A stretch of 64,000 nucleotides of DNA from Escherichia phage EC6, in sequence record JX560968. One strand, 5' to 3'. This document shows, piece by piece, positions 21,553 through 64,000 of the stretch (position 1 is the first letter of the stretch; every line of letters begins with the position of its first letter). A program made the translations under genes and the position numbers. The notes beneath the pieces were generated by a model that saw only the letters and a list, made by a program, of their open reading frames with translations, was not told the DNA's origin and did not search any database.

Positions 21553-21882
21553 TTAATCTGCCAACCTTAAGTTAAAATTAACACCAAATTTTTCGCATAC
21601 TTCCAACATAAACTCAAGAGAGACATTACCAGTGAGATTGATTATGTTGGATACACGAGCCTGAGAGATACCACAAATTTTAGCAACTTGCTCTTGAGAA
21701 AGACCTCTGGATTTAATCTCTCTCTTAAAACGATGTGCAACGAAATCTCTCATTTCGTCTACATCCATTGGACAAATATAACTCTCCATTTCAGCTTCTC
21801 TGTCAGCCTCCCAATCATCTTGTGGAGCATAAGGGTCAAAAACCTCATTCATCTTTCTTCTTCCGTTTGCGTGAAGTGTCAA
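21553..21882 (-). CDS. helix-turn-helix DNA-binding protein (putative regulator)
   Basis: LSQEQVAKICGISQARVSNII resembles XRE-type HTH. Confidence 0.4.
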   Translation of the reverse strand: MTLHANGRRKMNEVFDPYAPQDDWEADREAEMESYICPMDVDEMRDFVAHRFKREIKSRGLSQEQVAKICGISQARVSNIINLTGNVSLEFMLEVCEKFGVNFNLRLAD

Positions 21883-22057
21883 TCAATGAATCTATGCTTG
21901 TAGCCCTAACCTTTTCACGTTCATCGTTAAGATAATCATCAAGAGCCTTTTCAATCTGTGAATCATCTTGGCAGATAACTGTAAAGACTGTAAAGCCGTC
22001 TGTATCATCAATTATCTTACCATAACCGCTTCTGGGATGTAACTTTTTAAGAGCCAT
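21845..22057 (-). CDS. hypothetical protein
   Basis: 70-aa ORF, overlapping neighbours. Confidence 0.25.
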   Translation of the reverse strand: MALKKLHPRSGYGKIIDDTDGFTVFTVICQDDSQIEKALDDYLNDEREKVRATSIDSLIDTSRKRKKKDE

Positions 22058-22058
22058 A

Positions 22059-22442
22059 TCAAATACCTGTGCAGCTTCTGTTTTCTAAGAAATACTCAAC
22101 GCCATACATAGCTTTTTGCATCAAATCTTCTTTAAACTGGATGCGATGATTGAGCATAGCCTGTACATCAATATCATCATGGTGCTTCTCTTTAATATTT
22201 GCAGATTGCAGGAAATACTCTGCAAGAACACGATACTGATAGTCAGTCACCTTATCAGTCATCTCTGTCAAAGACTCTTCAGAGATTGGTTTAAGTAACT
22301 CACCATTAGCTAAAGCAACACCTTTAACAATCTGGCAAGTGTCTTCTGGAACACCTGATAAGTCCACATTTGGGAGTTCTGTTGCATTGACTGGTAAATT
22401 CATTGCCATAACCATTGCAGCAGCTAATAAAATCTTTTTCAT
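22059..22442 (-). CDS. secreted/periplasmic protein with signal peptide
   Basis: N-terminus MKKILLAAAMVMAMNLPVNA-TE; GAGGT RBS. Confidence 0.4.
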   Translation of the reverse strand: MKKILLAAAMVMAMNLPVNATELPNVDLSGVPEDTCQIVKGVALANGELLKPISEESLTEMTDKVTDYQYRVLAEYFLQSANIKEKHHDDIDVQAMLNHRIQFKEDLMQKAMYGVEYFLENRSCTGI

Positions 22443-25443: not shown

Positions 25444-26000
25444 TTAGTGTACTTCAAGCCAGCTTTTACCAACCTTACCAGTACCTGTAACAAGCGTTTC
25501 TTTCTTAAGACCTAAGTTTTTAGAAGCTTGCCCATAATACCAGTCAGTAACTGCTTTCACTTCTGCCGTCATACTTTCTGGACATTCCCAACTCGTCTCG
25601 TCGTGATAGGAGCACAATAAACGAGCACCTATAGCTGGTTTGCGACCGTTCAACTTCATCAAACCTTCGTCAATCATACGACGGCAAGCAAGGTTAATTG
25701 CTTCATTCTGAACCTGCGCCTCACTACCCATTAGGGTATAGTTTAATAGTTTATGCGGTGATTTACACCATAACCACGCCCCAGCGACCTGAATGTACCC
25801 ACCCTTAGCGATTGCAGCACTCTTGCCGAAAACCTCTTCTAATGCCTTCTTAGTGGCCTTAAAATCGGCTTCTAAGTTATCAAGTAGTTTCTTAATCTTT
25901 GGTAGACGCATATAGTAGGTCTGCTTAGTTAATGCACCTTCCTCTGTAGAAGCTGCCTTAATGGTCTTGGCAAACTTCTCATCACCTGCACCGAACAATA
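25444..26000 (-). CDS. family A DNA polymerase, exon 2 (C-terminal part incl. motif C)
   Basis: Begins ..LFGAGDEKFAKTIKA (second half of Pol A motif B, cf. T7 ...YGAGDEK) and contains LLCSYHDETSWECP (motif C HDE); track ORF starts at TTG. Confidence 0.7.
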
Positions 26001-26805
26001 CATCTGGTCAATACACTCGCAAGGTGTACCAGTTCTCTTATGAACTTCTCCGCATTTCTACGGAGTGTCGGACTATATCACGCAGTAGTAATACTACCGT
26101 TGCACTTGGGAATGGTCATTAGCTTACCACCCTACTCTACTCAGTTCATACATTAAGTATGCTTTTCGATAGTCTCTGAACGTTTCTCTGTTAGGAACTC
26201 TAAAATACTATTATTTACTAAGGTATGCAATTGCTCTCTTCATGTTCTCTATACTATCTGAGAACAGCCCAAGACCTCTGTTACAGTTGTGACACAGCAT
26301 ACCTCTTACCTGTCCTGTTTTGTGGTCATGGTCAACAACCAGCTTGGCTTTATGTCTTGAACCATCCATGATAAAACCTTCACCACCGCAGATTTGACAC
26401 TTGTGACCACACTTACTTAGTAACTCTTCGACCTCTTCTCTTTCTAAGCCGTAAGTCCTTAAGTAATAGTTCTTTACCCTTCCCTTTTCTCCACAAGCAG
26501 AACTGCAATACGTCTGTCTTGCTGTTCTAGGTGTAAACTGGTTATTGCAGCTTGGACATATTTTCTCTATGACACGACTTGCTGCTCTTCTGTCTACTTC
26601 AAGAACGCAGTTTCTACAACGTTTTTGATTGTACTGATATGGCTTAAACTCTTCGCCACATCTGGAACAAACTCTTTCTTTATAACCTGCCATTGTCTCT
26701 CTCCCATTTCTACTATAGGAGTCCTAACAGAGACTTCGCTGCTGATTACCATATCTTTACAGACTTAGGCTTCCAGCAATTCACAACGTTTTACATGCGC
26801 CACTG
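26001..26805 (-). mobile_element. group I intron (about 805 nt) in DNA polymerase gene, carrying an HNH homing endonuclease ORF
   Basis: Exon 1 ends ...AUCUAUGCGU; intron starts CAGUG-GCGCAU (P1: exon AUGCGU pairs with GCGCAU, U-G at splice site); intron ends ...GACCAGAUG; 3' part has GACUAUCG, GUAGGGU, GAUAUAGUCC elements like T4 td-type introns; joined exons restore ...KAKNGIYA-LLFGAGDEK. Confidence 0.6.
26211..26693 (-). CDS. HNH homing endonuclease (endonuclease VII-like) inside the intron
   Basis: Cys-rich zinc-binding N-terminus and HNH core LVVDHDHKTGQVRGMLCHNCNRGLG. Confidence 0.7.
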   Translation of the reverse strand: MAGYKERVCSRCGEEFKPYQYNQKRCRNCVLEVDRRAASRVIEKICPSCNNQFTPRTARQTYCSSACGEKGRVKNYYLRTYGLEREEVEELLSKCGHKCQICGGEGFIMDGSRHKAKLVVDHDHKTGQVRGMLCHNCNRGLGLFSDSIENMKRAIAYLSK

Positions 26806-28948
26806 ACGCATAGATACCATTCTTAGCCTTCTTACGGCCTTTAGTTATCTCGTGAAGAAGTTCTTCATCCTGAGTTTCTCTACAACGAATAATGTCATCC
26901 TCTTTGTTCAATGCAAAGTAGATGCTGTTAAGCGTATGTGCATCAGTACCTGTATACACCTCATATAAGTCATTATCCATATCGTAACGACAATACTTGT
27001 CAGTCTCTGGATTGAGGTACTTGTCAAGATGTTTGCAGTAGTACCGTCCATCATCCTGTTTAGTGAACTCGACAAACTCTTTACCTTCAGTTACTGCTTT
27101 AGTGAACTCTTTATCACCCATAAAGTTACACAGTAAAACAAGCTGTGCAGAGTTCTGGTCAACTGAAACGATGTTAGTCCCTTCCTCACAAATCCACACC
27201 TCCCTCATAGGTGCTCCATAGACAGCAGCACCAGATGGTACGTTTACAATACCATACTGCGTCATACGTCCAGTTGAAGTACCAAACACCATTGCACCAG
27301 CACTAAGGCGACCATCTGGACGAATCTGGTTCAACCAACCTTTTTCATCATCCTTTGAGTTCTCAATAGTTCTGCGTCGGTGCATCAAAGTATAGTACTT
27401 AGCAATCTTCTGTCCAAGTTCACCTTCAATCGTATCATAAGATGATTCAGTAAGTTTTGGTGAAGTACGGATTAAGCAAGGCTCAAGCAAATCTGTGTAC
27501 TTCTTCACAGACCAGTTATGCTCAATGTACTGTACACCTTCATGTTCAACATAACTCAAACCACACCGCTCAACCATTTCCTGCCACTTAGGATGCTTTG
27601 TAATCATCTTTTTATTGTCTTTGAAACGACAAACTTTGACAGGGTGACCATCTGAGTCTTTCTTGTAGTTCCAGTCATCTGGAATCCAACCAACTGATTT
27701 CAAGTAGTCTTTAACAACTGCTACCTGAGTCATACGAGAAACTTCAAACTCAATTGGTGTATATGGTGCATCAATCAAACCTGTGTAGCGACTTGACTCA
27801 AGTTCAAAGTGGTTAACAACGTGGCTGTTATAGTACTTCACAGTTTTGACTGTTTTTACTGGCTTCCAGTCTTTGCATTTCTTACCAATCTTTGCATTCA
27901 ACTCATTGCAAATTGCACGAGCATCCTTCATTGCTACAAAGCCTTCCTTGTACTCTTCACCAGTTACAGAGTTGGTTGGTGTATAGCAATTTCTCTTTTC
28001 AATGTTAAAAATCTTTGTAGTTGGCTTACCAAATGGCTTGATTTCGTATGTCTGCATCTCACCGTTACGTACCTGCTGACGATACTTTGTCTTAGGATAC
28101 TTGGTAATCCTCTTCAGTCCATCTGCATGACCAAATGTTTCAACATACTCATTCCAAGCTTTTGCAAACTCTTCTCCAGTGACTTTACCTTTGGTCTTAA
28201 TAGTTGGAGGAAGATGTGGTTCAACCTCTGAAGCAAGCTCATTAGTCAACTTGTCAAGTTCCTTTACATGGAACTCCATAAGCTCTTTATCAGCTTTCCA
28301 ACCATTGATAGCTTGTTGACTCATCCAGAAAGATGTTTCTTTAGCTCGCATGTAAGTTTCATAAGTGTCTATACCACACTTCTTAAGCTTGAGATACTCG
28401 TTATCAAGTGCCCGTTTAGTTTTGGCGTTAATACGGATATCTTCTACAACACGAGTGAAGATTTCTGCATTCCACACACCCCAATGTTCAATCTCTGGTT
28501 TACGAACACCAACACGAGCACCCCATGCAGCCAAACCATGAGCACCTTTATAACCCTTTGGAGTTGGTCTATCCATCCACTGAACACGAGACTGGATAAG
28601 AGAATCCTGAAAGAAATTACTCCACGGTTTACACTTTGGATTATCAAAGTTCCATAAATCAGGTGCAATGTGATTGAAAACCCACCAGTCATAACCGAGA
28701 CCGTTGTGGATGCAAAGACGTTTTGCCTTTAACGCAAACTCAATACCTTCACGTAAGCCACCCTTGATGTACTTGGTATACTTGTGACCGAGGATAGGCT
28801 CATCTGTAAAGACCCATACAGGTGGCTCTTCATCATCAGATTTATAGTCTGCGAAAGCCATTACGTGCACTTTAGTGAACTCAAGGAGTAAACCATCAGT
28901 TTCTGTATCACCAACTAAATGTAAGTTTTTAAAATCTACGTTTTCCAT
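26806..28948 (-). CDS. family A DNA polymerase, exon 1 (3'-5' exonuclease and N-terminal polymerase domains)
   Basis: Exo motif LVGDTETDGL (cf. Pol I DTETDSL); ends ...GRKKAKNGIYA (first half of motif B); likely start is ATG at 28948 (GAGGGAG RBS) rather than track start 28978. Confidence 0.75.
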
Positions 28949-29894: not shown

Positions 29895-30440
29895 ATGCAA
29901 AAGAATGACTATATCAGGATGTCAGACGAAGATAAGGAACTGTTGCTGACTAAGGACACTGATTTCATTATTGATACACTTATCTCATCAACAAGTGCTG
30001 TTATGGCTGTTCTTGAGAAGCGTATGGAAGAGAAACTTTCACGATATGAAAAACTTGATTGGGGCGTAGAAGAATTAAACCCACGAATCAAAGAGATTAT
30101 CCAGCAAACTAAAGAGTCTTTGGAAGAAGCTGTTGAAAATGACTCTGTAGCTGACATTGAACCACTTCAGGTGAAAGTTGCACTGATGATTCCAGCTATC
30201 TCTACGATGATGAATATCGTTGCACTAATCCAACTGTCACAGATGATGGGTGTGAGTATTGAGTTCATTGAGGAAATGACTGGTGGCGTTAGTATGCAAG
30301 CAATCAATGATGTTTTGGTGAACATTGGTGCTTCAATCATTGAAGAGAAACTACGCATTAACTTCGGTGATGATTTTGTGAAGCAAATCTCAGCTATGGC
30401 TGAAAAGAGTCTGCTGAGCAACTGCACTAAGTCTTTATAA
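29895..30440 (+). CDS. hypothetical protein
   Basis: ATG at 29895 overlaps upstream stop (ATGA-type coupling); track ORF 29835 starts further upstream. Confidence 0.3.
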   Translation: MQKNDYIRMSDEDKELLLTKDTDFIIDTLISSTSAVMAVLEKRMEEKLSRYEKLDWGVEELNPRIKEIIQQTKESLEEAVENDSVADIEPLQVKVALMIPAISTMMNIVALIQLSQMMGVSIEFIEEMTGGVSMQAINDVLVNIGASIIEEKLRINFGDDFVKQISAMAEKSLLSNCTKSL

Positions 30441-34815: not shown

Positions 34816-35863
34816 ATGGAGAAGTACACATTAAAAAAACCTTCCCGATTCAGTTACACATGTTTTTATCGACTCTGACAGTATTGCCTATAAAGGGGCT
34901 TGTGTAGTTGAGAAAGCAAAATATAAATACGTCAATAAACTCACAGCAGAAGAGTCTGAACCATTTGATAATGCAAAAGATGCTGCAAGATGGTTAGCAG
35001 ACCAGAGAATCCTTGTGGAAGAGCTTGGCCTAGCATTTGATGAAGATGAATGGGAAAGACAGACTTGGAAAGAAGCTAAGAGTGAAAAAGAAGCTATCAT
35101 GGCTACTCAACAGGTGCTTCAGGAATGGCTTAAGGTTGTTGGTAAAGAAAGAACTTGGGTAGGTTATTTAACAGAGAAAGGTGTGCATAAACATAAAGAC
35201 ATTAAAGGTCTTGAGCACCAATATCAAGGTAACCGCAAAGATGCTGTCACACCAACACACTTAGTTGCTTGTCGTGAATATCTTCTGTCAAGACCAGAGT
35301 TCAAACTAATTCTTGATGGATTTGAAGCTGACTCTATCGTGATTGCTAAAGCTGAAAAGATGGGTAAAAAGGCTGCCTTAATGAGTATTGATAAAGACCT
35401 TCGACAAGCTGAAGGTACTTACTGTATTGATATGACTTATGAAAAGTCGCCTTTGATTTTCATTGCTGATAACAACGTTGGTGAAATTTGGGATTGTCCA
35501 ATAAAATCGACACCAAAAGCTAAGAAGACAGTTGGGGTAGGTTTTAAATTTCTTTGCTATCAAGCCGTGGCTGGTGATAATGCGGATAATTATTTCGGTT
35601 TAAAGGGTGTTGGTAAGGTTACTATAATGAAAGCCCTTGAAGGTAAAACCACTTACAAAGAGTGTCTTGATGCAATTTATGAGCTTTATGCTAAGAAAGA
35701 GTCATACACTTATGTCTCGTGGGATGGTCAAACAATTACCAGAACACCTTTAGAGTTAATGCAGCAACACTTTTTCTTAGCTTATCAGGAAAGAAACAAG
35801 AAAGATGATTTCACTTTTGATAAGTATGGGTGGACACCAAATGTTAACTCAACAAACTCTTAA
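34816..35863 (+). CDS. 5'-3' exonuclease / flap endonuclease (RNase H-like), reading frame interrupted at A7 run 34833-34839
   Basis: ATG 34816 gives MEKYTLKK then stop; +1 frame continues ...VFIDSDSIAYKGAC (FEN N-terminal motif) into track ORF 35015..35863 with H3TH motif AGDNADNYFGLKGVGKVT. Confidence 0.6.
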
Positions 35864-42616: not shown

Positions 42617-43813
42617 ATGAACAAAGTACAAATTATTAAAAAGAATGGCTCACTTGAAGAACCGGATATCAAAAAAGTTTTAGCAGCAGTCACAAAGTCG
42701 GCTAATAGGGTTGGTTATAAAGAGCTTCCACCAGATGTTACTCAAGCTCTTGAGTCAGCATTTATGAGGATTCTGGTAAAATCTACTAAACAGAATAATT
42801 TGCTAATCTCGGTAAATGATATCCACAGTATTGTTGAGGGTGCTTTGGCAGAAGTCAATCATGAGATTTATGAGTCTTACTCAACATATAGAAATTACCG
42901 TAAAGAGGTTGCTCAAAATTGGGATGAGCTTTACCAAAAGACTAAAGACACACTCTTCTTAGGTGACCGTGAAAACGCTAACTTTGACAGTAGTTTAATT
43001 TCTACAAAAGGTTCAATTATTCGTGGTTACCTGACTAAAGAAATCTTTAAACAGTACCATTTAACACCAGAGGAACTTGAAGCCATTGAAAAAGGGTTTA
43101 TCTATATTCATGATTTAAGAGACCTGATTTTTGGTGGTATCAACTGTTGCCTGTTTGACATTGGTAAAGTGCTGAAAGGTGGCTTTGAAATGTCTGGCAT
43201 TGAATACTGTGAACCAAAGTCTGTACTGTCAGCTTTACAGGTTATTGGTGATGTAGTTCTTTCAGCAACTGCACAGCAATTTGGTGGCTTTACTTTAGCA
43301 GAGATTGATAAGGTACTTGTACCGTATGCTAAGAAGTCTCTACGTTACCATGCTGAAAAAGCAACAGCTTATGGTATTCCTAAAGAACATTACCACAACT
43401 ATGTCATGGAGCAGCTACAGATTGAATTAACTCAAGGTTTTCAGTCTCTTGAAATGAAGCTCAATACCGTACCTTGTAGCCGTGGTGATTTTGCATTCAC
43501 AACTTTAACATTTGGTTTACTTGACCCAGACATGTCTAATGAAGACAACCGATTACAATACATGATTGCAAGTACCCTCCTAGATGTTCGTATGAATGGA
43601 CAAGGTAAGAGCAAGAAGCCTGTTGTATTTCCTAAACTGGTTTATATTTATGACCAGAAGAGACACGATGAGAATATCTGTCAAGGACACCTGTACAGTA
43701 AAGCCATTGAGTGTTGCTCTAAAGCAATGTATCCAGATTTCTTAAGTGTATCTGGTCATGGTGCTGTAGCAGAGGCTTTTGAGCGTTCTGGTAAGGTTAT
43801 TTCACCGATGGGT
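42617..43813 (+). CDS. nrdD: anaerobic ribonucleoside-triphosphate reductase, exon 1
   Basis: N-terminal ATP-cone (IIKKNGSLEEPDIKKV); ORF ends ...ISPMG where intron begins with UAA. Confidence 0.75.
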
Positions 43814-44129
43814 TAACAAGCTCTATAGCTCATCTAAAACGTGCCTAAACAGGGAAACTCTACAGATGTAGACAATCCTGTGCTAAATGATGTATGATGT
43901 AAGAAACTATACAACATAGGAGTCTTACATGCCAAATAACTTCGAATATGAGTTTGAATACATCTAAATGCCGAACGACTAACCGTGATGAATGTAGCGG
44001 TGTAGGGTCAAGCGACTCGAAATGGTACGCTACTTAGAAATAAGTAGAAGATATAGTCTGGACTTACTGGCGACAGTAAGCAGCTTGAATAAAGCGGGGT
44101 AAGCTTAGCGAACTTACCTGAACAACAAG
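43814..44129 (+). mobile_element. ORF-less group I intron (about 316 nt) in nrdD
   Basis: Starts UAACAAGCUC right after exon AUGGGU (P1 with intron GCUCAU at 43828-43833); core resembles T4 td-type introns (CUAAACAGGGAAACUCUACAGAUGUAGACAAUCCUGUGCUAAAU; GUAGGGUCAAGCGACUCGAAA; GAUAUAGUCUGG); ends ...CUGAACAACAAG; exon 2 resumes in frame. Confidence 0.7.
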
Positions 44130-45077
44130 TGTAGAGCATTTTTATCACCATACCATAACGAATATGGCGAAGAGTTTTATGTAGGTCGTGCTAACATCGG
44201 TGCTGTTTCTTTGAACTTACCAATGATTTACCAGTATTCTAAAGAGAATGGTTTAGATTTCTGGAAGGAGCTTGATAAGTACCTAGAGATGATTCGCAGC
44301 TTCCACAAGAAACGCTACGAAATGATTGCTAACATGCCAGCAAGTTCTAACCCTCTGGCATTCACACAAGGTGGTCTGTACAAAGGGACTAAGAAACCTA
44401 CTGACAAGGTTGGTTGGGATATCGTGAAGTCCTTCACAGCTTCTTTTGGGGTTACTGCGCTTGATGAACTATCTGTTCTTGCTGAAGGTAAACGACTTCA
44501 TGAAGTTGGAAGTTCTAGTTTTGCATACGATGTTCTGGCATACATTAACATGAAAACTGAAGAGTTTAAGAATGAAGATGGCTTCCTGTATGCAGTATAT
44601 GGCACTCCAGCAGAGTCATTGTGTGGAACTCAGCTAAAACAGTTCAGAGATATGTTTGGCGTTATCAAAGGCGTTTCTGATAAGGAATATTTTACAAACA
44701 GTTTCCATATGAATGTTGCAGCAGATATCTCACCATTTGAGAAGCAGGACTTAGAAGAGCCATTCTTCCATATCTGTAGAGGCGGCAGAATCCAGTATGT
44801 GAGGGTAGCTAACCCAGAAAACTTACCAGCACTTAAAAGTTGTATTACAAGAGGGATGTTGAAAGGCTTTTATCAGGGACTTAACTTTGACTTAGCAATC
44901 TGCGAACATTGTGGCAACAGGCCAAAGGCTGATGTTGAAGAATGTGAGGTTTGCCATTCACATGACATCTCTGTGATTAACAGAGTGTGTGGATATCTTG
45001 GGTGGACTAAGATTAAAGGTGAATCCCGAATGAATGATGCAAAAATTGCTGAGATTCGTGATAGGGTTTCTATGTAA
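44130..45077 (+). CDS. nrdD: anaerobic ribonucleoside-triphosphate reductase, exon 2
   Basis: Begins CRAFLSPYHNEYGEEFYVGRANIGAVSLNLP; C-terminal zinc ribbon CEHCG...CEVCH and glycyl-radical motif RVCGYLG; spliced product about 714 aa. Confidence 0.75.
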   Translation, partial: CRAFLSPYHNEYGEEFYVGRANIGAVSLNLPMIYQYSKENGLDFWKELDKYLEMIRSFHKKRYEMIANMPASSNPLAFTQGGLYKGTKKPTDKVGWDIVKSFTASFGVTALDELSVLAEGKRLHEVGSSSFAYDVLAYINMKTEEFKNEDGFLYAVYGTPAESLCGTQLKQFRDMFGVIKGVSDKEYFTNSFHMNVAADISPFEKQDLEEPFFHICRGGRIQYVRVANPENLPALKSCITRGMLKGFYQGLNFDLAICEHCGNRPKADVEECEVCHSHDISVINRVCGYLGWTKIKGESRMNDAKIAEIRDRVSM

Positions 45078-45230: not shown

Positions 45231-45431
45231 ATGTTTAAAATATCAAAAACGTTGATATACATACTTCACATTCTAATCTTCTTCTTTGGAGTTAGCGTTA
45301 TGGTATGGGGTTTTTCAGACCCACAATGGAGTTTCACATATCATGGTCAGATGGATTTATGGTCATGCTTCAAACCATTTTTAGGGTTAGCTATAGCATT
45401 CAGTGCATTGCCAGCTAAGGTGAAATTATGA
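45231..45431 (+). CDS. small membrane protein
   Basis: 66 aa, two hydrophobic segments. Confidence 0.3.
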   Translation: MFKISKTLIYILHILIFFFGVSVMVWGFSDPQWSFTYHGQMDLWSCFKPFLGLAIAFSALPAKVKL

Positions 45432-45537
45432 TTAAGTTGAACAAAAACAGTTAGAGTGGATTAAAGATTACGCCTCAGAGTGTGGCTCTTGCGAAAAGAA
45501 TCACGTAAGATACTCAACATTTCATACGGTCTTCACA

Positions 45538-45822
45538 TTGTACATAGGTGACAACGTTCTAAGTGATTCCGTAGAAGATGGTGTAGCGTTGCCTAAGGAA
45601 TTGCTTGACAAATTAGCTATAGTCACTGGAACTTGGTCTGAAGAAGACGGTCATGAATTATTTGACAATGTTGTCTTCTACAACATTGAAAATATTATGA
45701 ATCCAGAGTACATTATGCTAATGACTTGTGCACAAGACTGTGTGCCATTACAAAACTTCATTAAAGAACACTGTGAAGAATTTATTACTAAACAAGTTCC
45801 TTGTCATGTGGTGTTTGAATGA
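45538..45822 (+). CDS. hypothetical Cys-containing protein (possibly starts at ATG 45428 with a frame change at A5 run 45443-45447)
   Basis: Frame is open upstream to 45433; ATG 45428 overlaps previous stop but is in another frame. Confidence 0.25.
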   Translation: MYIGDNVLSDSVEDGVALPKELLDKLAIVTGTWSEEDGHELFDNVVFYNIENIMNPEYIMLMTCAQDCVPLQNFIKEHCEEFITKQVPCHVVFE

Positions 45823-45857: not shown

Positions 45858-46342
45858 ATGAATTACATGGAGATTAGACCATTTGACACAGCTAATGGTG
45901 AAGGGGTTCGTGTAAGCCTCTTCGTAGCTGGCTGCAAACATCACTGTGAAGGCTGCTTTAACAGGGAGTCTTGGAAATTTAATGCTGGTAAAGAGTTTAC
46001 TTATGCAAACCTCTATGGCATCATCAAGTTAATGGATGATAATGCTATCAGTGGGCTGTCAATACTTGGTGGGGAGCCTCTGGATGATAGAAACATTCAA
46101 GACGTTACCAATATATGTAAACGTATTAAAACTGTTTACCCAGAAAAATCTATATGGCTTTGGACAGGTTTTCAGTTACACGAAAAATCCACCTCGATGT
46201 GATGAAATATGTTGACGTGGTGATTGATGGTAAGTATGATTCTTCTAAACCAACAGTTAAACCTTATCGTGGTTCTGATAACCAAAACCTCTGGAGAAAA
46301 GAGTATGGATGGCAAGGTGATTGTCAATGGCGAGCAGAATGA
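45858..46342 (+). CDS. nrdG: anaerobic ribonucleotide reductase activating protein (radical SAM), frame interrupted at A5 run 46184-46188
   Basis: N-terminal half has CKHHCEGC (CxxxCxxC) and IWLWTGFQLHE; -1 frame continues KIHLDVMKYVDVVIDGKYD...RGSDNQNLW, matching NrdG C-terminus. Confidence 0.65.
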
Positions 46343-51322: not shown

Positions 51323-53690
51323 ATGCGCATGGTAAACGACCACGCAGAAGTGATTAAGAGTTCAACTTCTTTAGAGACGTCTCAGGCACAGATTACAATG
51401 ACACCTGAAATGTTCAGCCTTTTGAGTTCTGGTGTATATACCTTTAAAGAAAGGGCAGTCATTCGTGAACTGTCATGTAACGCAGTAGATGCTCAGAAAG
51501 AAGCTGGAAAAGAGAACATCCCTTTCCATGTGCATTTACCTACTCGTTTTGAGCCTTACTTTGAAGTTCGTGATTTTGGAACTGGATTGACTCATGATAA
51601 AGTTATGAGTTTGTATCTAAACTACGGGGCTTCTACGAAGAATGACTCTAATGACTACATTGGTGCAATGGGTATCGGCTCAAAATCTCCATTTGCAATT
51701 GCTCAGTCATTCACAGTATCTAGCTATGTTGATGGTGTTGTTAATAAGTACTCTGTTTATCTTGAGAATGGTATCCCTCAAGTAACTAAGCTGACTACTA
51801 ACCCAATAAAAGAACCTAATGGTTTAGCTGTACGTGTAGCAGTTGCTGACCATCGTATCTCAAAGTTCTTTGAAGAGGCTGGTCACGTATACTCATACTT
51901 TGCTGTAAAACCAGAAAGTAATATCGAGTATGACGATATATTAGCAGATATGAACGTCATTGCCCGTGAAGAAGGTGTTTATGATGCCATGATTCATAAG
52001 CAAAGCTGGCGTTCTAGTGGTAACAGGACAGAGTTTAATGTGGTGATGGGTAATATTGCCTATCCAGTGAACATGGAAGCATTACTTGGTGATGATTTCT
52101 TCAAAGTATTGCCAGAATTTTTCCGTAGGAGCGTAGACCTTGTAAACATCTACATGCCTATTGGTTCAGTTGCTATTGCAGCTTCTCGTGAAGCATTGCA
52201 GATGAATGACACGACAAAAAACTGTTATCATTGAGGCTACTAAAAAGATAACTGAAGCAATTACAAAGGATGTTATCAAGAAAGTTAACAGTCAACCTAC
52301 ACTTATGGATGCTGCACAGGCTTATGCTGAGTTACGTTTGAACTCACGAGAGATGTTTAATGCTGTGTGTCCAAAGCTAGAGTGGGGTGGTGTTAAGCTT
52401 GATTCTCTGGAAGAAGAATTACTAAACATTCGTCGTGGAATTATCTACGCAGAAGACGGCTCAGTTATCTATGAACGTGATGGTAAAGGTAATATTAAGG
52501 TTGATAGGAACGGAAACAATATCCCTAAAGTAGATTATCTTTATAATCCAGTTGCTTATGTTAAGTTCAACTCTTTAGAAAGTAAGATTCGTGCAACAGC
52601 ACTTTCCTACACTCAAGAGGCAAGTATGTTCAATATCTTTGGCGCAATGCGTAAAAGTCAAATTGAACAGTTTTTGTTTGTTATAAACGACCGTCGCAAT
52701 AAAAATGGTACTGAGAAGACTGTAGGACGCAATCAGATTCTGCGTGGTGCATGTCGAGACTATGCCAGTGAGTCTAGTCTGTTTCACAGATACAACGGTA
52801 TCGTCTTTGTATTCTCGACTGAAAAAGAGTTAGACAACCTAATCAATCTGCACAAACTTGATAAAAGCTTGTTAAAGATTGTGAAGATGTCTGATAAGGA
52901 ACATCATTATCAGCGTAAAGAAGCTGTAAGAGGTGTTGTAAAACTTTGGAAAGCTGTTCCAGCAGAAGGTGTAGCTTCATACAAAGAGGTGTCAGAGGAC
53001 TTAGATACGATTGAAGAACCTCAGCTTTACATTAAGGCAATTGGTGACACAGTTGATGGTGAATGTTTTTGCTCATCTCCAGAAGATGTAGCTAAGTCAG
53101 TTGCTAATGTTACAGGTAAGACAGTCTATGTTTTCCGAAAAGCAAATTGGAAAAAGATACCAGAAGATTGGATTGAAGTAGATGAGAAACTCTTGAACGA
53201 CAGCTTAACTGATGTTCACTGGATTAACCATAACAGATATATGACGCGTATCTATATGAATGGTGTCCTTGACCTTACAAGCAGTTGGATTATTGCCAGA
53301 AACTTTACATTCAATAACAGGAAGATTTCTCGTGGTTATTGCTATTCACGGGATACAAACAAAACTATCTTCCTAGAAGGAAATGAAGAGGCTGTAGAGG
53401 CAATGTTCGGTAAAATCCAATACGTTGCTGCACCGTTTGCATACACTTATACTATTAGTAGATTGCAAACTTTGAAAGAATGTCTTGACAACGATACAAA
53501 GCTGTACAAGAAAATCAAGAAAGCTGGTGACCGTATGGTCATTAAGGTGACAAACTACCTTTCAAAAAGAAAACAAGAAAACTTCTTGCTTTCTCATTTA
53601 GATTGGAATAAAGTGTCACCCATCGAAGTGAGTAAGTTCTTGGGCTTTGATGTGAAGTGTGTTCCAGAAGGGACTACAATTTACGATTAA
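51323..53690 (+). CDS. rIIA: rIIA-like protein with GHKL ATPase N-terminal domain; two overlapping ORFs (51323..52234, 52206..53690) joined by a frame change at A6 run 52216-52221
   Basis: Bergerat-fold motifs ELSCNAVDA, RDFGTGL, GAMGIGSKS; combined about 797 aa; followed by rIIB-like gene as in T4. Confidence 0.5.
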
Positions 53691-59859: not shown

Positions 59860-60240
59860 ATGGCTTATCGTGCACCTAAATTCATCAATAAAGACAACTT
59901 CCGCAACGCACTGGAAAAATCACTTGATGAGAACTTTACAGGTCAGATTATTATTGTTCACGCATATAATTTTAAGTATGATATTAACGGGAATAAAATC
60001 AATCATTACACGGCAACAATGGTAGATGGTACACTATCAAGTGAAAAAGCCGTACTGAATGCACTTGCAGGACGTGGCAAAAACCTGATAAAATGCAATA
60101 AGAGACGTTATCAAGGCGGCGCATATGGTTATGATGATGCTGTTTACCATCTTGAAAATATGGGCTATCAGGTGGAAAAAGCCGGAATATCTCAAATAAT
60201 TGGCAGTGATGGATATGTGACAATTTTCAAAATTAAATAA
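59860..60240 (+). CDS. early hypothetical protein
   Basis: 126 aa; own promoter/stem-loop cassette and AGGAGA RBS. Confidence 0.45.
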   Translation: MAYRAPKFINKDNFRNALEKSLDENFTGQIIIVHAYNFKYDINGNKINHYTATMVDGTLSSEKAVLNALAGRGKNLIKCNKRRYQGGAYGYDDAVYHLENMGYQVEKAGISQIIGSDGYVTIFKIK

Positions 60241-60247
60241 AAAGTAC

Positions 60248-60329
60248 TTTACAAGGGGCTTATAGTTCGATAAAGTAAGCCCCAGATAAAGAGCTTTACC
60301 ACTAAATCCTTAAACTAGGAGATTCAAAA
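60248..60329 (+). promoter_or_regulatory. promoter-hairpin-SD cassette (type II)
   Basis: TTTACA-N17-TAAAGT with GGGGCTTA...TAAGCCCC hairpin spanning spacer and -10; then CCTTAAACTAGGAGATTCAAAAATG. Confidence 0.5.
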
Positions 60330-60842
60330 ATGAAAACTGTAGACGCTACCTTTGAAGTTGTAAAAGAAAAATTTTCCATCATTTACGAAGCGGTTAACTG
60401 CTACGAAGCAAGTCATAGCCTTGATAATTGGGAATTTACAGATAATCATCAAGGTGGTGTTACTGTTAAAAATCCTAACTATCAGCGTAATGAGTTTAAA
60501 TATGCAATCCCTTTACATTACAGCCTGAAACAGCTTTCGAGTGACTATGCAAAACAAGGACGGGCAAATCCATCAAAAGAGGCTTATATCAGCTTACAGG
60601 AAGAACTAGAAAGGGATTTGGAGGCTTCAGAGTATAATATCTCTGCAAAAGTTGTGGATGTAAACGGGAAAACGGTTTTAGACAGCTTTTACATTGGTTA
60701 CGCTTTCGATTGGTGCTACAGTGACGGCGATGATTTAGATGAAAGACTAAAAGAGGAAGTGAACAACGCAGACGCAGAATCTGAAGTATTAGAACGCTTG
60801 GAAGCCTTAAAAGATTCAGTGATGAATATCTTTAAAAATTAA
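60330..60842 (+). CDS. early acidic hypothetical protein
   Basis: 170 aa, acidic C-terminal half (DGDDLDERLKEEVNNADAESE). Confidence 0.45.
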   Translation: MKTVDATFEVVKEKFSIIYEAVNCYEASHSLDNWEFTDNHQGGVTVKNPNYQRNEFKYAIPLHYSLKQLSSDYAKQGRANPSKEAYISLQEELERDLEASEYNISAKVVDVNGKTVLDSFYIGYAFDWCYSDGDDLDERLKEEVNNADAESEVLERLEALKDSVMNIFKN

Positions 60843-60858
60843 ATTAAGAGGGAACACC

Positions 60859-61191
60859 ATGTTAATGATGGGTATCACTGCAATCATCGCCATTATAGCA
60901 CTTTATAAGGCTTACAGCGCCTATAATCTGGCAAGTAAGGCAATCACGCAACAGGTTAACAATAATCTCGTGATGAGCTTTCTCGAGCGTTTAAGCGATG
61001 AGCAATTGAAACGGTTAGAAATGAGCTTCAGATTTCAATCAAAAACTTATCAAATCAGCGACATTTTCAAAGAGGATTTTCAGCTTGTCGATGATTATAA
61101 CGCACTGATAAATGCTTTAAATATCAGTGACTTAAAAGACTACTATGCTGTAATTGTTCAAGAAATGAGCAAACGAAAAAATTCCTCTTGA
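60859..61191 (+). CDS. early membrane-anchored hypothetical protein
   Basis: 110 aa, N-terminal TM MLMMGITAIIAIIALY. Confidence 0.4.
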   Translation: MLMMGITAIIAIIALYKAYSAYNLASKAITQQVNNNLVMSFLERLSDEQLKRLEMSFRFQSKTYQISDIFKEDFQLVDDYNALINALNISDLKDYYAVIVQEMSKRKNSS

Positions 61192-61281
61192 TTTTGGTTT
61201 TTAAAGCAAGTAAATTACTAATCAACGGGGAGGGGATGACCTTCCCCACTAAGTAAAACCCTTAAACTAGGAGATTCTAAA
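61188..61281 (+). promoter_or_regulatory. promoter + 5' stem-loop + SD cassette (type I)
   Basis: TTGATT-N17-TAAATT, ACTAATCAACGGGGAGGGGATGACCTTCCCCACTAAGTAAAACCCTTAAACTAGGAGATTCTAAAATG. Confidence 0.55.
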
Positions 61282-61554
61282 ATGTATACTACTAACAACG
61301 GTCGCACCTTAAACGTAACCCTTCGCCACTATGTGAACGGTGTAATGCACTTCGAAGATTTACAAGCTGAACAACATATTCTGAATTGGCAACTTGCAGG
61401 ATTCCAAAAAACTGCTACCGGATACGGGAAAAAGATTCCAACTAGTTGGAAAGTATACTACGAAGGACGTTTGCGCAGAATTTATCAGGATGTTTACAGC
61501 AATAGCGCAACAAGTTACATCATGGTAAAAGGTAAAAAATTGCACTTAGTGTAA
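61282..61554 (+). CDS. early hypothetical protein
   Basis: 90 aa. Confidence 0.4.
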   Translation: MYTTNNGRTLNVTLRHYVNGVMHFEDLQAEQHILNWQLAGFQKTATGYGKKIPTSWKVYYEGRLRRIYQDVYSNSATSYIMVKGKKLHLV

Positions 61555-61559
61555 AGTAC

Positions 61560-61641
61560 TTTACAAGGGGCTTATAGTTCGATAAAGTAAGCCCCAGATA
61601 AAGAGCTTTACCGCATTAACCTTAAACTAGGAGATTCAAAA
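61560..61641 (+). promoter_or_regulatory. promoter-hairpin-SD cassette (type II)
   Basis: Near-identical copy of 60248..60329. Confidence 0.5.
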
Positions 61642-62046
61642 ATGGCTATCAATAAACGCGAATTATCAATTTTAAAAGCACGTTTGACCGTTAACCGGAT
61701 TAATGTTATTACGTCATCAGCACCAGACGAGACACTGCAAAACATTATTGGGAAGATTCAAAGTGTTATCTTAGACGTTGAAAGCGTAAAAAACTCACTG
61801 ACTGACGTTGCAGCAGGTATCACCTTAAACGGTGCACAATATGAAATGGCTGACATGTTAGGCAAATCTAAGGTAATGAATAAAGAGCTTGATTTGAAAA
61901 TGTTCAGATTCGCCGTAAAAGTATGGTTATCCGTCGATTATGACGCAAATTTTGCAATCGCTGACTTTTTCGCAACATGGTTACAACGTAATTTGACAAA
62001 TCACGATTTTCGTGATATCTGCGATGCAATTTATGCAGAACTTTAA
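61642..62046 (+). CDS. early hypothetical protein
   Basis: 134 aa. Confidence 0.4.
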   Translation: MAINKRELSILKARLTVNRINVITSSAPDETLQNIIGKIQSVILDVESVKNSLTDVAAGITLNGAQYEMADMLGKSKVMNKELDLKMFRFAVKVWLSVDYDANFAIADFFATWLQRNLTNHDFRDICDAIYAEL

Positions 62047-62061
62047 AAAAAAAAACTTTTG

Positions 62062-62156
62062 TTGACACTGGTTTTTAAATAGATTAAATTGTCAATCAAC
62101 GGGGAGGGAATGACCTCCCCCACTAAGTAAAACCCTTAAACTAGGAGATTCAAAAA
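62062..62156 (+). promoter_or_regulatory. promoter + 5' stem-loop + SD cassette (type I)
   Basis: TTGACA-N17-TAAATT; hairpin GGGGAGGGAATGACCTCCCCC (compensatory T-to-C change gives a perfect stem). Confidence 0.55.
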
Positions 62157-62357
62157 ATGGCTATTATTAACGGTTTAAATATTGAGACTACTCACATCAA
62201 AGACATTAAAGTTGGCGATATAGTCCTTTTTCACGGCGTAGAAAAAACCGTCACCGCAAAGGATATCAAAGAGGATTCATTCATGGGCCGGTCTCTCTTC
62301 GGTGATTCGTATTGCTTAGGTTACCGTGCAGTTTTAAAAGTTGTCAAAAATAACTAA
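62157..62357 (+). CDS. early hypothetical protein
   Basis: 66 aa. Confidence 0.35.
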   Translation: MAIINGLNIETTHIKDIKVGDIVLFHGVEKTVTAKDIKEDSFMGRSLFGDSYCLGYRAVLKVVKNN

Positions 62358-62365
62358 TAAAGTAC

Positions 62366-62447
62366 TTTACAAGGGGCTTATAGTTCGATAAAGTAAGCCC
62401 CAGATAAAGAGCTTTACCACTAAATCCTTAAACTAGGAGATTCAAAA
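62366..62447 (+). promoter_or_regulatory. promoter-hairpin-SD cassette (type II)
   Basis: Third near-identical copy (TTTACAAGGGGCTTATAGTTCGATAAAGTAAGCCCC...). Confidence 0.5.
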
Positions 62448-62990
62448 ATGAAATGCTTTCACGGTACTACTCAAGAAAACTTCACCAACCTGATTAATAA
62501 CGGCGATAAGCCATCAGGTGCATGGAATTGTTCGGATATGGACGGCAATTTTTACGTGTATCCAGAAAATAAAATCTATGGCGACGATGCGGAAGAGATA
62601 GCATCCGAAGGTATCCAGCAAGCTCTGGGCAATGCCACTATCACCGCAGCTTTCCAGATGAAAACTCAAAACATTGTTATCTTGGAACTTGATATTCCAG
62701 AAGACGAGTTAAATGATGATTATTCTTGCGATAATATGTCTGGCGTGGCAAGTTTTACGGAATATTTCGATTTAAACTGGATTAAAAAGGTTTACACCAC
62801 TGAATTTAATGCCATGTTTTCACCATTTTGTCTGCCTTCACTGGATAACCCGAATTTAAACTATATTGATGAGTCTCTGGAACTCCTCGCTAAAAGCGTT
62901 CAACAGTCCGACAGTATTCAGGTTTTTTGTGACATCATGGACACACTGACGGAAAACATCATAGAAAGAGATTTGAAGGGCTTTTTCTGA
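62448..62990 (+). CDS. early acidic hypothetical protein
   Basis: 180 aa, Asp/Glu-rich. Confidence 0.4.
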   Translation: MKCFHGTTQENFTNLINNGDKPSGAWNCSDMDGNFYVYPENKIYGDDAEEIASEGIQQALGNATITAAFQMKTQNIVILELDIPEDELNDDYSCDNMSGVASFTEYFDLNWIKKVYTTEFNAMFSPFCLPSLDNPNLNYIDESLELLAKSVQQSDSIQVFCDIMDTLTENIIERDLKGFF

Positions 62991-63022
62991 AAACCTATAC
63001 AATCACCTTATAAACACTATTC

Positions 63023-63043
63023 AGCCCCTTGCAGGGGCTTTTA
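63023..63043 (+). terminator. rho-independent terminator
   Basis: AGCCCCT-TGC-AGGGGCT then TTTT. Confidence 0.45.
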
Positions 63044-63056
63044 AAGGGCTTTAATC

Positions 63057-63290
63057 ATGCTTACAACCGTTTACCTTATCCTTTCCATCTGTAATGGACA
63101 TTCATGTGATTTTAAAGGTCTCGAGGAGTTTACAGGGAGTAAAGAAAATGCTATTCAGGTTTGCCAGATAGCAAGACAAGACTACCCCGCCAGTGATGAT
63201 ATTCAATGTTACTTTAAGACAGAAGACAGCGACGGCGTTTATTTTGACAGCGTTGATGGTCAATATGAAATTATCATTGATAAAGACTAG
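63057..63290 (+). CDS. early hypothetical protein with hydrophobic N-terminus
   Basis: 77 aa; MLTTVYLILSICNG. Confidence 0.35.
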   Translation: MLTTVYLILSICNGHSCDFKGLEEFTGSKENAIQVCQIARQDYPASDDIQCYFKTEDSDGVYFDSVDGQYEIIIDKD

Positions 63291-63380
63291 ACAAGCCGGA
63301 TAAAAGTCTGTAAATTACTAATCAACGGGGAGGGGATGAACTTCCCCACTAAGTAAAACCCTTAAACTAGGAGATTCAAA
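63288..63380 (+). promoter_or_regulatory. promoter + 5' stem-loop + SD cassette (type I)
   Basis: TAGACA-N17-TAAATT overlapping upstream stop; GGGGAGGGGATGAACTTCCCC hairpin. Confidence 0.5.
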
Positions 63381-63722
63381 ATGGCTTATGTAACTGTAAT
63401 TACTGATAAAGCTGATTCATCTTGGCCAACTCAAGTAAGCGATAAGATGACACCTATGCAGTGCCTAAAATACTTTGAGCAATGGAATAAAGGAGAAGGT
63501 GTCAGCCCCTTTCAAGTGATGCAGGTTATCCATGTAAGCGATAAAGGGATTAAAACAGTTTTAAACAGTGAACACTATACAACACGATTTGAAACGAGAT
63601 GTAAAACGATGAAACTGTTACGCGAATCCGGTTATTCTCATATTGCCGCGCTAATCTGGGATGACTTGCTAAAAAATCAGCGTATCAGCTACGTAAAACC
63701 TGAAAAAATATTCATCAGTTAA
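63381..63722 (+). CDS. early hypothetical protein
   Basis: 113 aa. Confidence 0.4.
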   Translation: MAYVTVITDKADSSWPTQVSDKMTPMQCLKYFEQWNKGEGVSPFQVMQVIHVSDKGIKTVLNSEHYTTRFETRCKTMKLLRESGYSHIAALIWDDLLKNQRISYVKPEKIFIS

Positions 63723-63754
63723 TCAATAACTTACAAAAAACTTCTAAAAAAGTG

Positions 63755-63783
63755 TTGACAATACCCCTTGACATTGGTAACTT
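63755..63783 (+). promoter_or_regulatory. sigma70-like promoter TTGACA-N17-TAACTT
   Basis: TTGACA 63755-63760; second overlapping TTGACA at 63768-63773. Confidence 0.35.
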
Positions 63784-63852
63784 TGTTCGAGGGGGTTTAT
63801 CTTAAAGGGATTCACTTAAAAGATTTCTTTAAAGATAAACTTAAAAAATTGC

Positions 63853-63946
63853 TTGCAATCAGATATCAAAACAAGTAAATTACTAATCAACGGGGAGGGA
63901 ATGACCTTCCCCACTAAGTAAAACCCTTAAACTAGGAGATTCTAAA
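63853..63946 (+). promoter_or_regulatory. promoter + 5' stem-loop + SD cassette (type I)
   Basis: TTGCAA-N17-TAAATT; GGGGAGGGAATGACCTTCCCC hairpin; AGGAGATTCTAAAATG. Confidence 0.5.
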
Positions 63947-64000
63947 ATGAACAAATTTCAAGCTATCAACTATATTCGTTCCGTCAATGTCATGTCTAAA
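63947..64000 (+). CDS. early hypothetical protein (3' end outside window)
   Basis: ATG after type I cassette; reads MNKFQAINYIRSVNVMSK to window end. Confidence 0.35.
   Translation, partial: MNKFQAINYIRSVNVMSK

Follow-up and report, generated by a model that had tools for sequence, protein, structure and literature searches.

Felix O1-like NrdG and the window

The closest described counterparts of the gene considered here are the NrdG proteins of Felixounavirus phages (Meda AXY86272.1; Felix O1 NP_945003.1), encoded downstream of nrdD. The NrdG proteins of phage T4 and Escherichia coli (protein family TIGR02491) are more distant relatives. Phage T4 can dispense with both nrdD and nrdG during aerobic growth.

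The window, by which we mean the whole 64,000-nucleotide stretch of DNA that was analysed, derives from a Felix O1-like phage (Felixounavirus). Over a stretch of 24 kb, it is approximately 95% identical to many GenBank Felixounavirus genomes, none of which is a near-identical record. The genes nrdA, nrdB, that for glutaredoxin, nrdD, three small ORFs, nrdG, prs and nadV follow one another in the same order as in these relatives, and class Ia NrdA, NrdB and glutaredoxin are all intact. The gene for NrdD, the enzyme activated by NrdG, is in two parts:

42617-43814, plus strand: nrdD exon 1
43815-44129, plus strand: group I intron in nrdD (Rfam RF00028, 53.6 bits at 43756-44080), with no homing-endonuclease ORF
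44130-45077, plus strand: nrdD exon 2, which joins exon 1 in frame to give a protein of 714 aa

The exon boundaries were set by aligning the window with phage dune, whose nrdD is uninterrupted, and the joined protein is approximately 98% identical to dune NrdD. As the exons join in frame and match the dune protein, the partner enzyme of NrdG is intact. We also considered whether the two-part nrdD might represent another frameshift; this reading was rejected, because the interruption is a group I intron (RF00028) and the flanking exons are in frame with each other. At the same site, the insert of CRP22, Meda and SWJM-02 is longer and includes an HNH endonuclease gene.

A one-base length difference splits nrdG

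As written, the window lacks the uninterrupted frame of approximately 155-160 codons expected of an NrdG, and such a frame is regained only upon addition of one A. The sequence instead contains the following elements:

45858-46202, plus strand: N-terminal nrdG frame, 114 aa and a TGA stop (Fer4_12, E = 2.6e-34; TIGR02491, 151 bits)
46183-46187, plus strand: A5 run in nrdG; A6 in 20 of 21 aligned relatives and A7 in one (C600M2)
46187-46342, plus strand: C-terminal 51 codons of nrdG and a stop, in the -1 frame (IHLDVMKYVDVVIDGKYD...RGSDNQNLW...RAE), with Fer4_12 and TIGR02491 matches

The earlier note, written from the letters of the sequence, had described an N-terminal ORF bearing CKHHCEGC and ending in FQLHEKSTSM, and exactly this ORF is seen at 45858-46202. 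It includes VAGCKHHCEGC, with the CX3CX2C motif of the radical-SAM [4Fe-4S]/SAM cluster (C26-K-H-H-C30-E-G-C33) near its N-terminus, as well as a GGEP motif, and terminates in FQLHEKSTSM directly before the stop. Around position 46180 its triplets read TTT CAG TTA CAC GAA AAA TCC ACC TCG ATG TGA, so that the nrdG frame is broken after codon 110. The note had placed the A5 run at 46184-46188, and here a small correction is required, since the run lies one base further to the left. From 46187, the -1 frame reads IHLDVMKYVDVVIDGKYDSSKPTVKPYRGSDNQNLW...RAE, with the stop at 46340-46342; that this frame continues with the conserved NrdG C-terminus, as had also been proposed, is borne out by a match to TIGR02491 positions 117-153.

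The two pieces fit together when viewed through the family models. On Fer4_12 (Pfam; model length 137), the N-terminal half covers positions 1-98 and the C-terminal half positions 104-136; on TIGR02491 (the NCBIfam NrdG equivalog; model length 154), the N-terminal half covers positions 1-111, followed by the C-terminal match given above. As both halves match the same models in consecutive register, the split is not a chance pattern of ORFs, and the suggestion that nrdG is divided by a -1 frame change at an A run holds. With one A added, the restored 161-aa NrdG scores 197.6 bits against a TIGR02491 cutoff of 126.1 and matches positions 1-153 of 154, compared with 151 bits for the N-terminal fragment alone. 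A comparison with solved structures matched only the PFL-activating enzyme, over the N-terminal 80 residues only.

The restored product resembles Felixounavirus NrdG in its length of 161 aa and in its CX3CX2C motif, and the restored gene differs from Meda nrdG by one nucleotide and one amino acid. As it stands in the window, in contrast, the gene has A5 rather than A6 and its ORF ends at 114 aa. The nrdG split is thus a single-base difference in length, A5 in the window versus A6 in the relatives.

The A run in related phages

The earlier note had proposed an alignment with NrdG orthologs as a check, and this alignment shows A5 to be private to the window. The four closest relatives that were aligned (Meda, pSJ21, EcoM_D4 and CRP22) each carry A6, and their nrdG is annotated as an intact gene of 486 nt; Meda and pSJ21 nrdG differ from that of the window by one substitution and the A gap. 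In GenBank phage searches, all matches listed (40, 30 and 60, the 60 being drawn from across the full ranking of 205 records) were one base longer than the query, C600M2 being two bases longer. None of the 205 GenBank phage records was 100% identical over the 101 nt around the A run. Moreover, a degenerate DNA pattern with A5 had no match in viral, genome and metagenome contig collections, and its A6 version matched 15 viral contigs.

The C-terminal part of nrdG (46187-46342) is without a single nucleotide difference from Meda. Compared with most relatives, the 50 codons following the break show no amino-acid difference, despite 4-10 synonymous nucleotide differences.

Disrupted versions of nrdG occur in other Felixounavirus records, sporadically and without being conserved. 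Escherichia phage C600M2 (OK040807.1, 119-605) has A7 at the identical run and a split nrdG annotation, and in Salmonella phage ST11 (121-604) the nrdG annotation is split slightly downstream of the A run. In SWJM-02 (21557-22279), nrdG lacks one base close to its 3' end and is fused to the next ORF as a result.

Frame changes in other conserved genes of the window

When the annotated proteins of CRP22 were compared with the translated window, frame changes also appeared in several other conserved genes. We defined a private indel as one whose length is not divisible by three and which is present in one genome only, with all others agreeing, and compared the window with CRP22, SWJM-02, REP8, dune and shorter loci over the range of 26-60 kb. 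The window has ten private indels in this range, seven of them in conserved coding sequence; a further, eighth indel lies at 30403, in a gp68-like gene. The genes broken are the gp68-like, gp72-like, gp77-like and gp91-like genes, those for the 5'-3' exonuclease and rIIA, and nrdG:

29883, minus strand: gp68-like gene ("minor tail protein"), T6 run; A6 with an extra C
30403: second indel in the gp68-like gene, A4/A5 run
33461: gp72-like gene, A5/A6 run
34840: 5'-3' exonuclease gene (34817-35863), lesion at 34833-34841, broken at codon 8-9
36584: gp77-like gene, A6 run with an extra C
45442 (45442-45447): gp91-like hypothetical gene of 131 aa (CRP22 gp91, Meda_014), ORF 45428-45822, just upstream of nrdG
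46183: nrdG, A6 to A5
52222 (52216-52222): rIIA (51323-53690), extra C after A6, leaving ORFs of 303 and 494 aa

In the 5'-3' exonuclease gene, the window has TTAAAAAAACCTT at 34833-34841 versus TTAACAAAACTT in the relatives; the ATG-started frame stops after 22 codons, and residues 9-348, in another frame, are 98.5% identical to CRP22. The gp91-like gene is frameshifted at codon 5, with A5 in place of the A6 found in all 18 relatives, and its sole remaining ORF encodes 94 aa from a TTG start (45538-45822). The extra C at 52222 in rIIA is missing from all ten relatives that cover the site.

All ten private indels of the window are located at or beside homopolymer runs of at least five; such runs, taken with 6 nt on either side, occupy 7.4% of positions. 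Three of the coding-sequence changes are deletions from A6 to A5. The insertions (n = 4) are, without exception, an extra C directly after A6 or A7, one of them on the minus strand, and this recurrent addition looks like a systematic signature that is technical rather than mutational. By comparison, CRP22, REP8 and dune have four, two and three private indels, respectively, all of them intergenic according to the annotation tables. SWJM-02 has seven, some in coding sequence; these coding indels, including the nrdG fusion, indicate that imperfect public genomes of this group exist.

Selection on the private changes of the window

The base substitutions private to the window number 176 synonymous and 45 nonsynonymous, and none creates a nonsense codon. 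The resulting nonsynonymous/synonymous ratio of 0.26 falls within the values for four relatives (0.19-0.28). Given this normal ratio and the lack of nonsense codons, the base substitutions are reliable and have been under selection. The idea that the sequence is generally noisy was consequently rejected; the problem is specific to homopolymer indels.

We also counted private changes in the codons that follow the seven frameshifts, read in the ancestral frame. There, 29 changes were synonymous and eight nonsynonymous, which argues that the shifted segments remained under purifying selection in their old frame during the private history of this lineage. It follows that the indels are either not real or extremely recent. 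An old pseudogene was thereby rejected: the same counts show no nonsynonymous excess and no relaxed selection downstream, and the C-terminal part of nrdG is the same as in Meda.

The earlier note had held a true pseudogene to be unlikely on the ground that NrdG is an essential partner of NrdD. The conclusion stands for an old pseudogene, as nothing downstream of the break has decayed. The argument offered for it is weak, because class Ia NrdA and NrdB as well as glutaredoxin are encoded intact in the window and because nrdD and nrdG are dispensable in aerobically grown T4; in general, this phage does not depend on NrdG. The actual case lies in the comparison, i.e. in an A5 private to the window, at least seven other private homopolymer indels and the lack of decay out of frame.

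Sequencing error or recent mutation

Taken together, these observations point to a sequencing or assembly artefact as the source of the nrdG split, with a probability that we put at about 0.75. The missing A is private to this sequence, lies in a homopolymer and is one of a set of similar indels, and these indels are most likely errors rather than mutations, judging from the comparisons above. We suggest that this Felix O1-like phage has an otherwise intact nrdG in which A6 was read as A5, a one-base undercall introduced most likely by sequencing, base-calling or assembly. The real phage would then most likely encode a normal NrdG of 161 aa, the predicted radical-SAM activase that would install the glycyl radical on NrdD, the product of the intron-containing gene just upstream.

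The single-base length changes and insertions at A/T/G runs of at least five resemble the homopolymer errors of 454, Ion Torrent and Nanopore-type sequencing. As in homopolymer assembly errors, in addition, the distribution of the indels between coding and non-coding sequence roughly follows coding density, and the substitutions are normal. The extra C after A6, on the other hand, differs from a plain miscall of run length.

The same picture at this single site would arise from a real, very recent slippage mutation, homopolymers being natural hotspots of mutation and slippage. According to this main alternative, which we regard as unlikely while taking it seriously, this isolate lost one A of the A6 run through replication slippage, for example while it was propagated aerobically in the laboratory, and nrdG is a fresh pseudogene; NrdD would not be activated, and the phage would depend on class Ia NrdAB. 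In its favour, the intact NrdA, NrdB and glutaredoxin of the window can supply dNTPs aerobically. The alternative also has parallels in the A7 and split annotation of C600M2 at the identical run and in the nrdG genes of ST11 and SWJM-02, disrupted or fused at other positions, but these disruptions in public records could likewise be sequencing errors. A further point in favour of a mutation comes from the region of the structural genes (1-26 kb), in which no coding frameshift was seen even though approximately one third of the A/T runs of the window are found there. If errors fell evenly over the runs, the chance of finding none in this part would be approximately 0.055, a weak hint that dispensable early genes were hit preferentially, as they would be by real mutations.

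The mutational alternative, however, would need a single viable phage to have acquired approximately eight frameshifts, all recent and independent, among them those in the 5'-3' exonuclease gene and rIIA, with no decay downstream of any of them. Moreover, replication slippage poorly explains the repeated addition of a C after A6, and the well-assembled genomes of CRP22, REP8 and dune have no private coding indels at all. Error is much the simpler explanation compared with approximately eight recent mutations. We consider it highly improbable that A5 and the other breaks are all real in a viable phage in which low-level -1 slippage yields enough NrdG, or which tolerates being without nrdG, rIIA and the flap exonuclease at once.

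Should A5 nevertheless be real, it would represent a fresh loss-of-function allele of an accessory gene of anaerobic dNTP supply, of interest at the level of the isolate and involving no new mechanism. The nrdG split is not new biology. Its bearing is on annotation quality: at least eight frame breaks associated with homopolymers are present in the sequence and need to be compared with the reads before annotation, and labelling nrdG, rIIA, the 5'-3' exonuclease gene and four hypothetical genes as pseudogenes or split genes would require confirmation at the level of reads.

Programmed recoding and a two-piece NrdG

Two functional readings of the split, a recoded and a two-piece NrdG, are even jointly very unlikely, and nothing points to programmed frameshifting or to a two-piece NrdG that is conserved. 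In the first, full-length NrdG would be produced from the A5 sequence either by transcriptional slippage on the A run or by tRNA-Lys slipping into the -1 frame on GAA-AAA-U. A -1 slip after GAA AAA would indeed yield exactly the ancestral protein, since tRNA-Lys could re-pair with AAA and ATC CAC would be read next, and a modest hairpin starts shortly 3' of the A run. The A-rich context, together with a long product restored by a -1 shift, is reminiscent of E. coli dnaX (A AAA AAG) and of the G/GT sites of phage tail chaperones. Unlike these systems, however, the window lacks an in-phase slippery heptamer and a conserved stimulator, and the site is not conserved among relatives. The 0-frame sequence CAC GAA AAA TCC offers no in-phase X XXY YYZ heptamer, such that only the Lys codon in the A site can re-pair.

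The downstream fold is not distinguishable from those of shuffled sequences: that of 46175-46270 has a minimum free energy of -17.7 kcal/mol (z = -0.86), and 42 of 200 shuffled sequences fold as well. The runs known to give efficient transcriptional slippage have roughly eight or more A/T, a length of which A5 falls far short. In addition, the relatives, with A6 and one continuous ORF, have no need of recoding, and seven other such breaks occur at unrelated sites in the window. Neither recoding nor a split NrdG turned up in a full-text literature search on nrdG, frameshift and phage. We thus consider recoding at this site exceedingly improbable.

That the N-terminal fragment of 114 aa assembles into an active enzyme with a C-terminal fragment translated on its own, for example from ATG 46154 or the GTG/ATG at 46199-46204, is barely credible: a 62-aa ORF with an ATG start does span the C-terminal part (46154-46342), but no evident Shine-Dalgarno-like sequence precedes 46154, the break falls inside the single Fer4_12/NrdG domain (model position approximately 112-116 of 154), no relative is split here except C600M2, whose indel at the identical run is of opposite sign, and the exact 114-aa product has no record in the gene collection.

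Other interrupted and repeated sequences in the window

The DNA polymerase gene (25447-28948, minus strand) matches CRP22 as two pieces, which lie in different frames approximately 800 nt apart. The intervening sequence varies among relatives: CRP22 and dune have an HNH ORF beside one continuous polymerase gene, and SWJM-02 and REP8 have two separately annotated polymerase ORFs. Rather than a frameshift, the interruption probably represents an intron or an intein-like insertion.

Towards the end of the window (60200-64000), a series of short ORFs is found, each following a repeated intergenic unit of approximately 100 nt (…GGGGAGGGGATGACCTTCCCCACTAAATCCTTAAACTAGGAGATTC…ATG). Repeats of this kind are typical of the early region of Felix O1-like phages, and their length differs between relatives.
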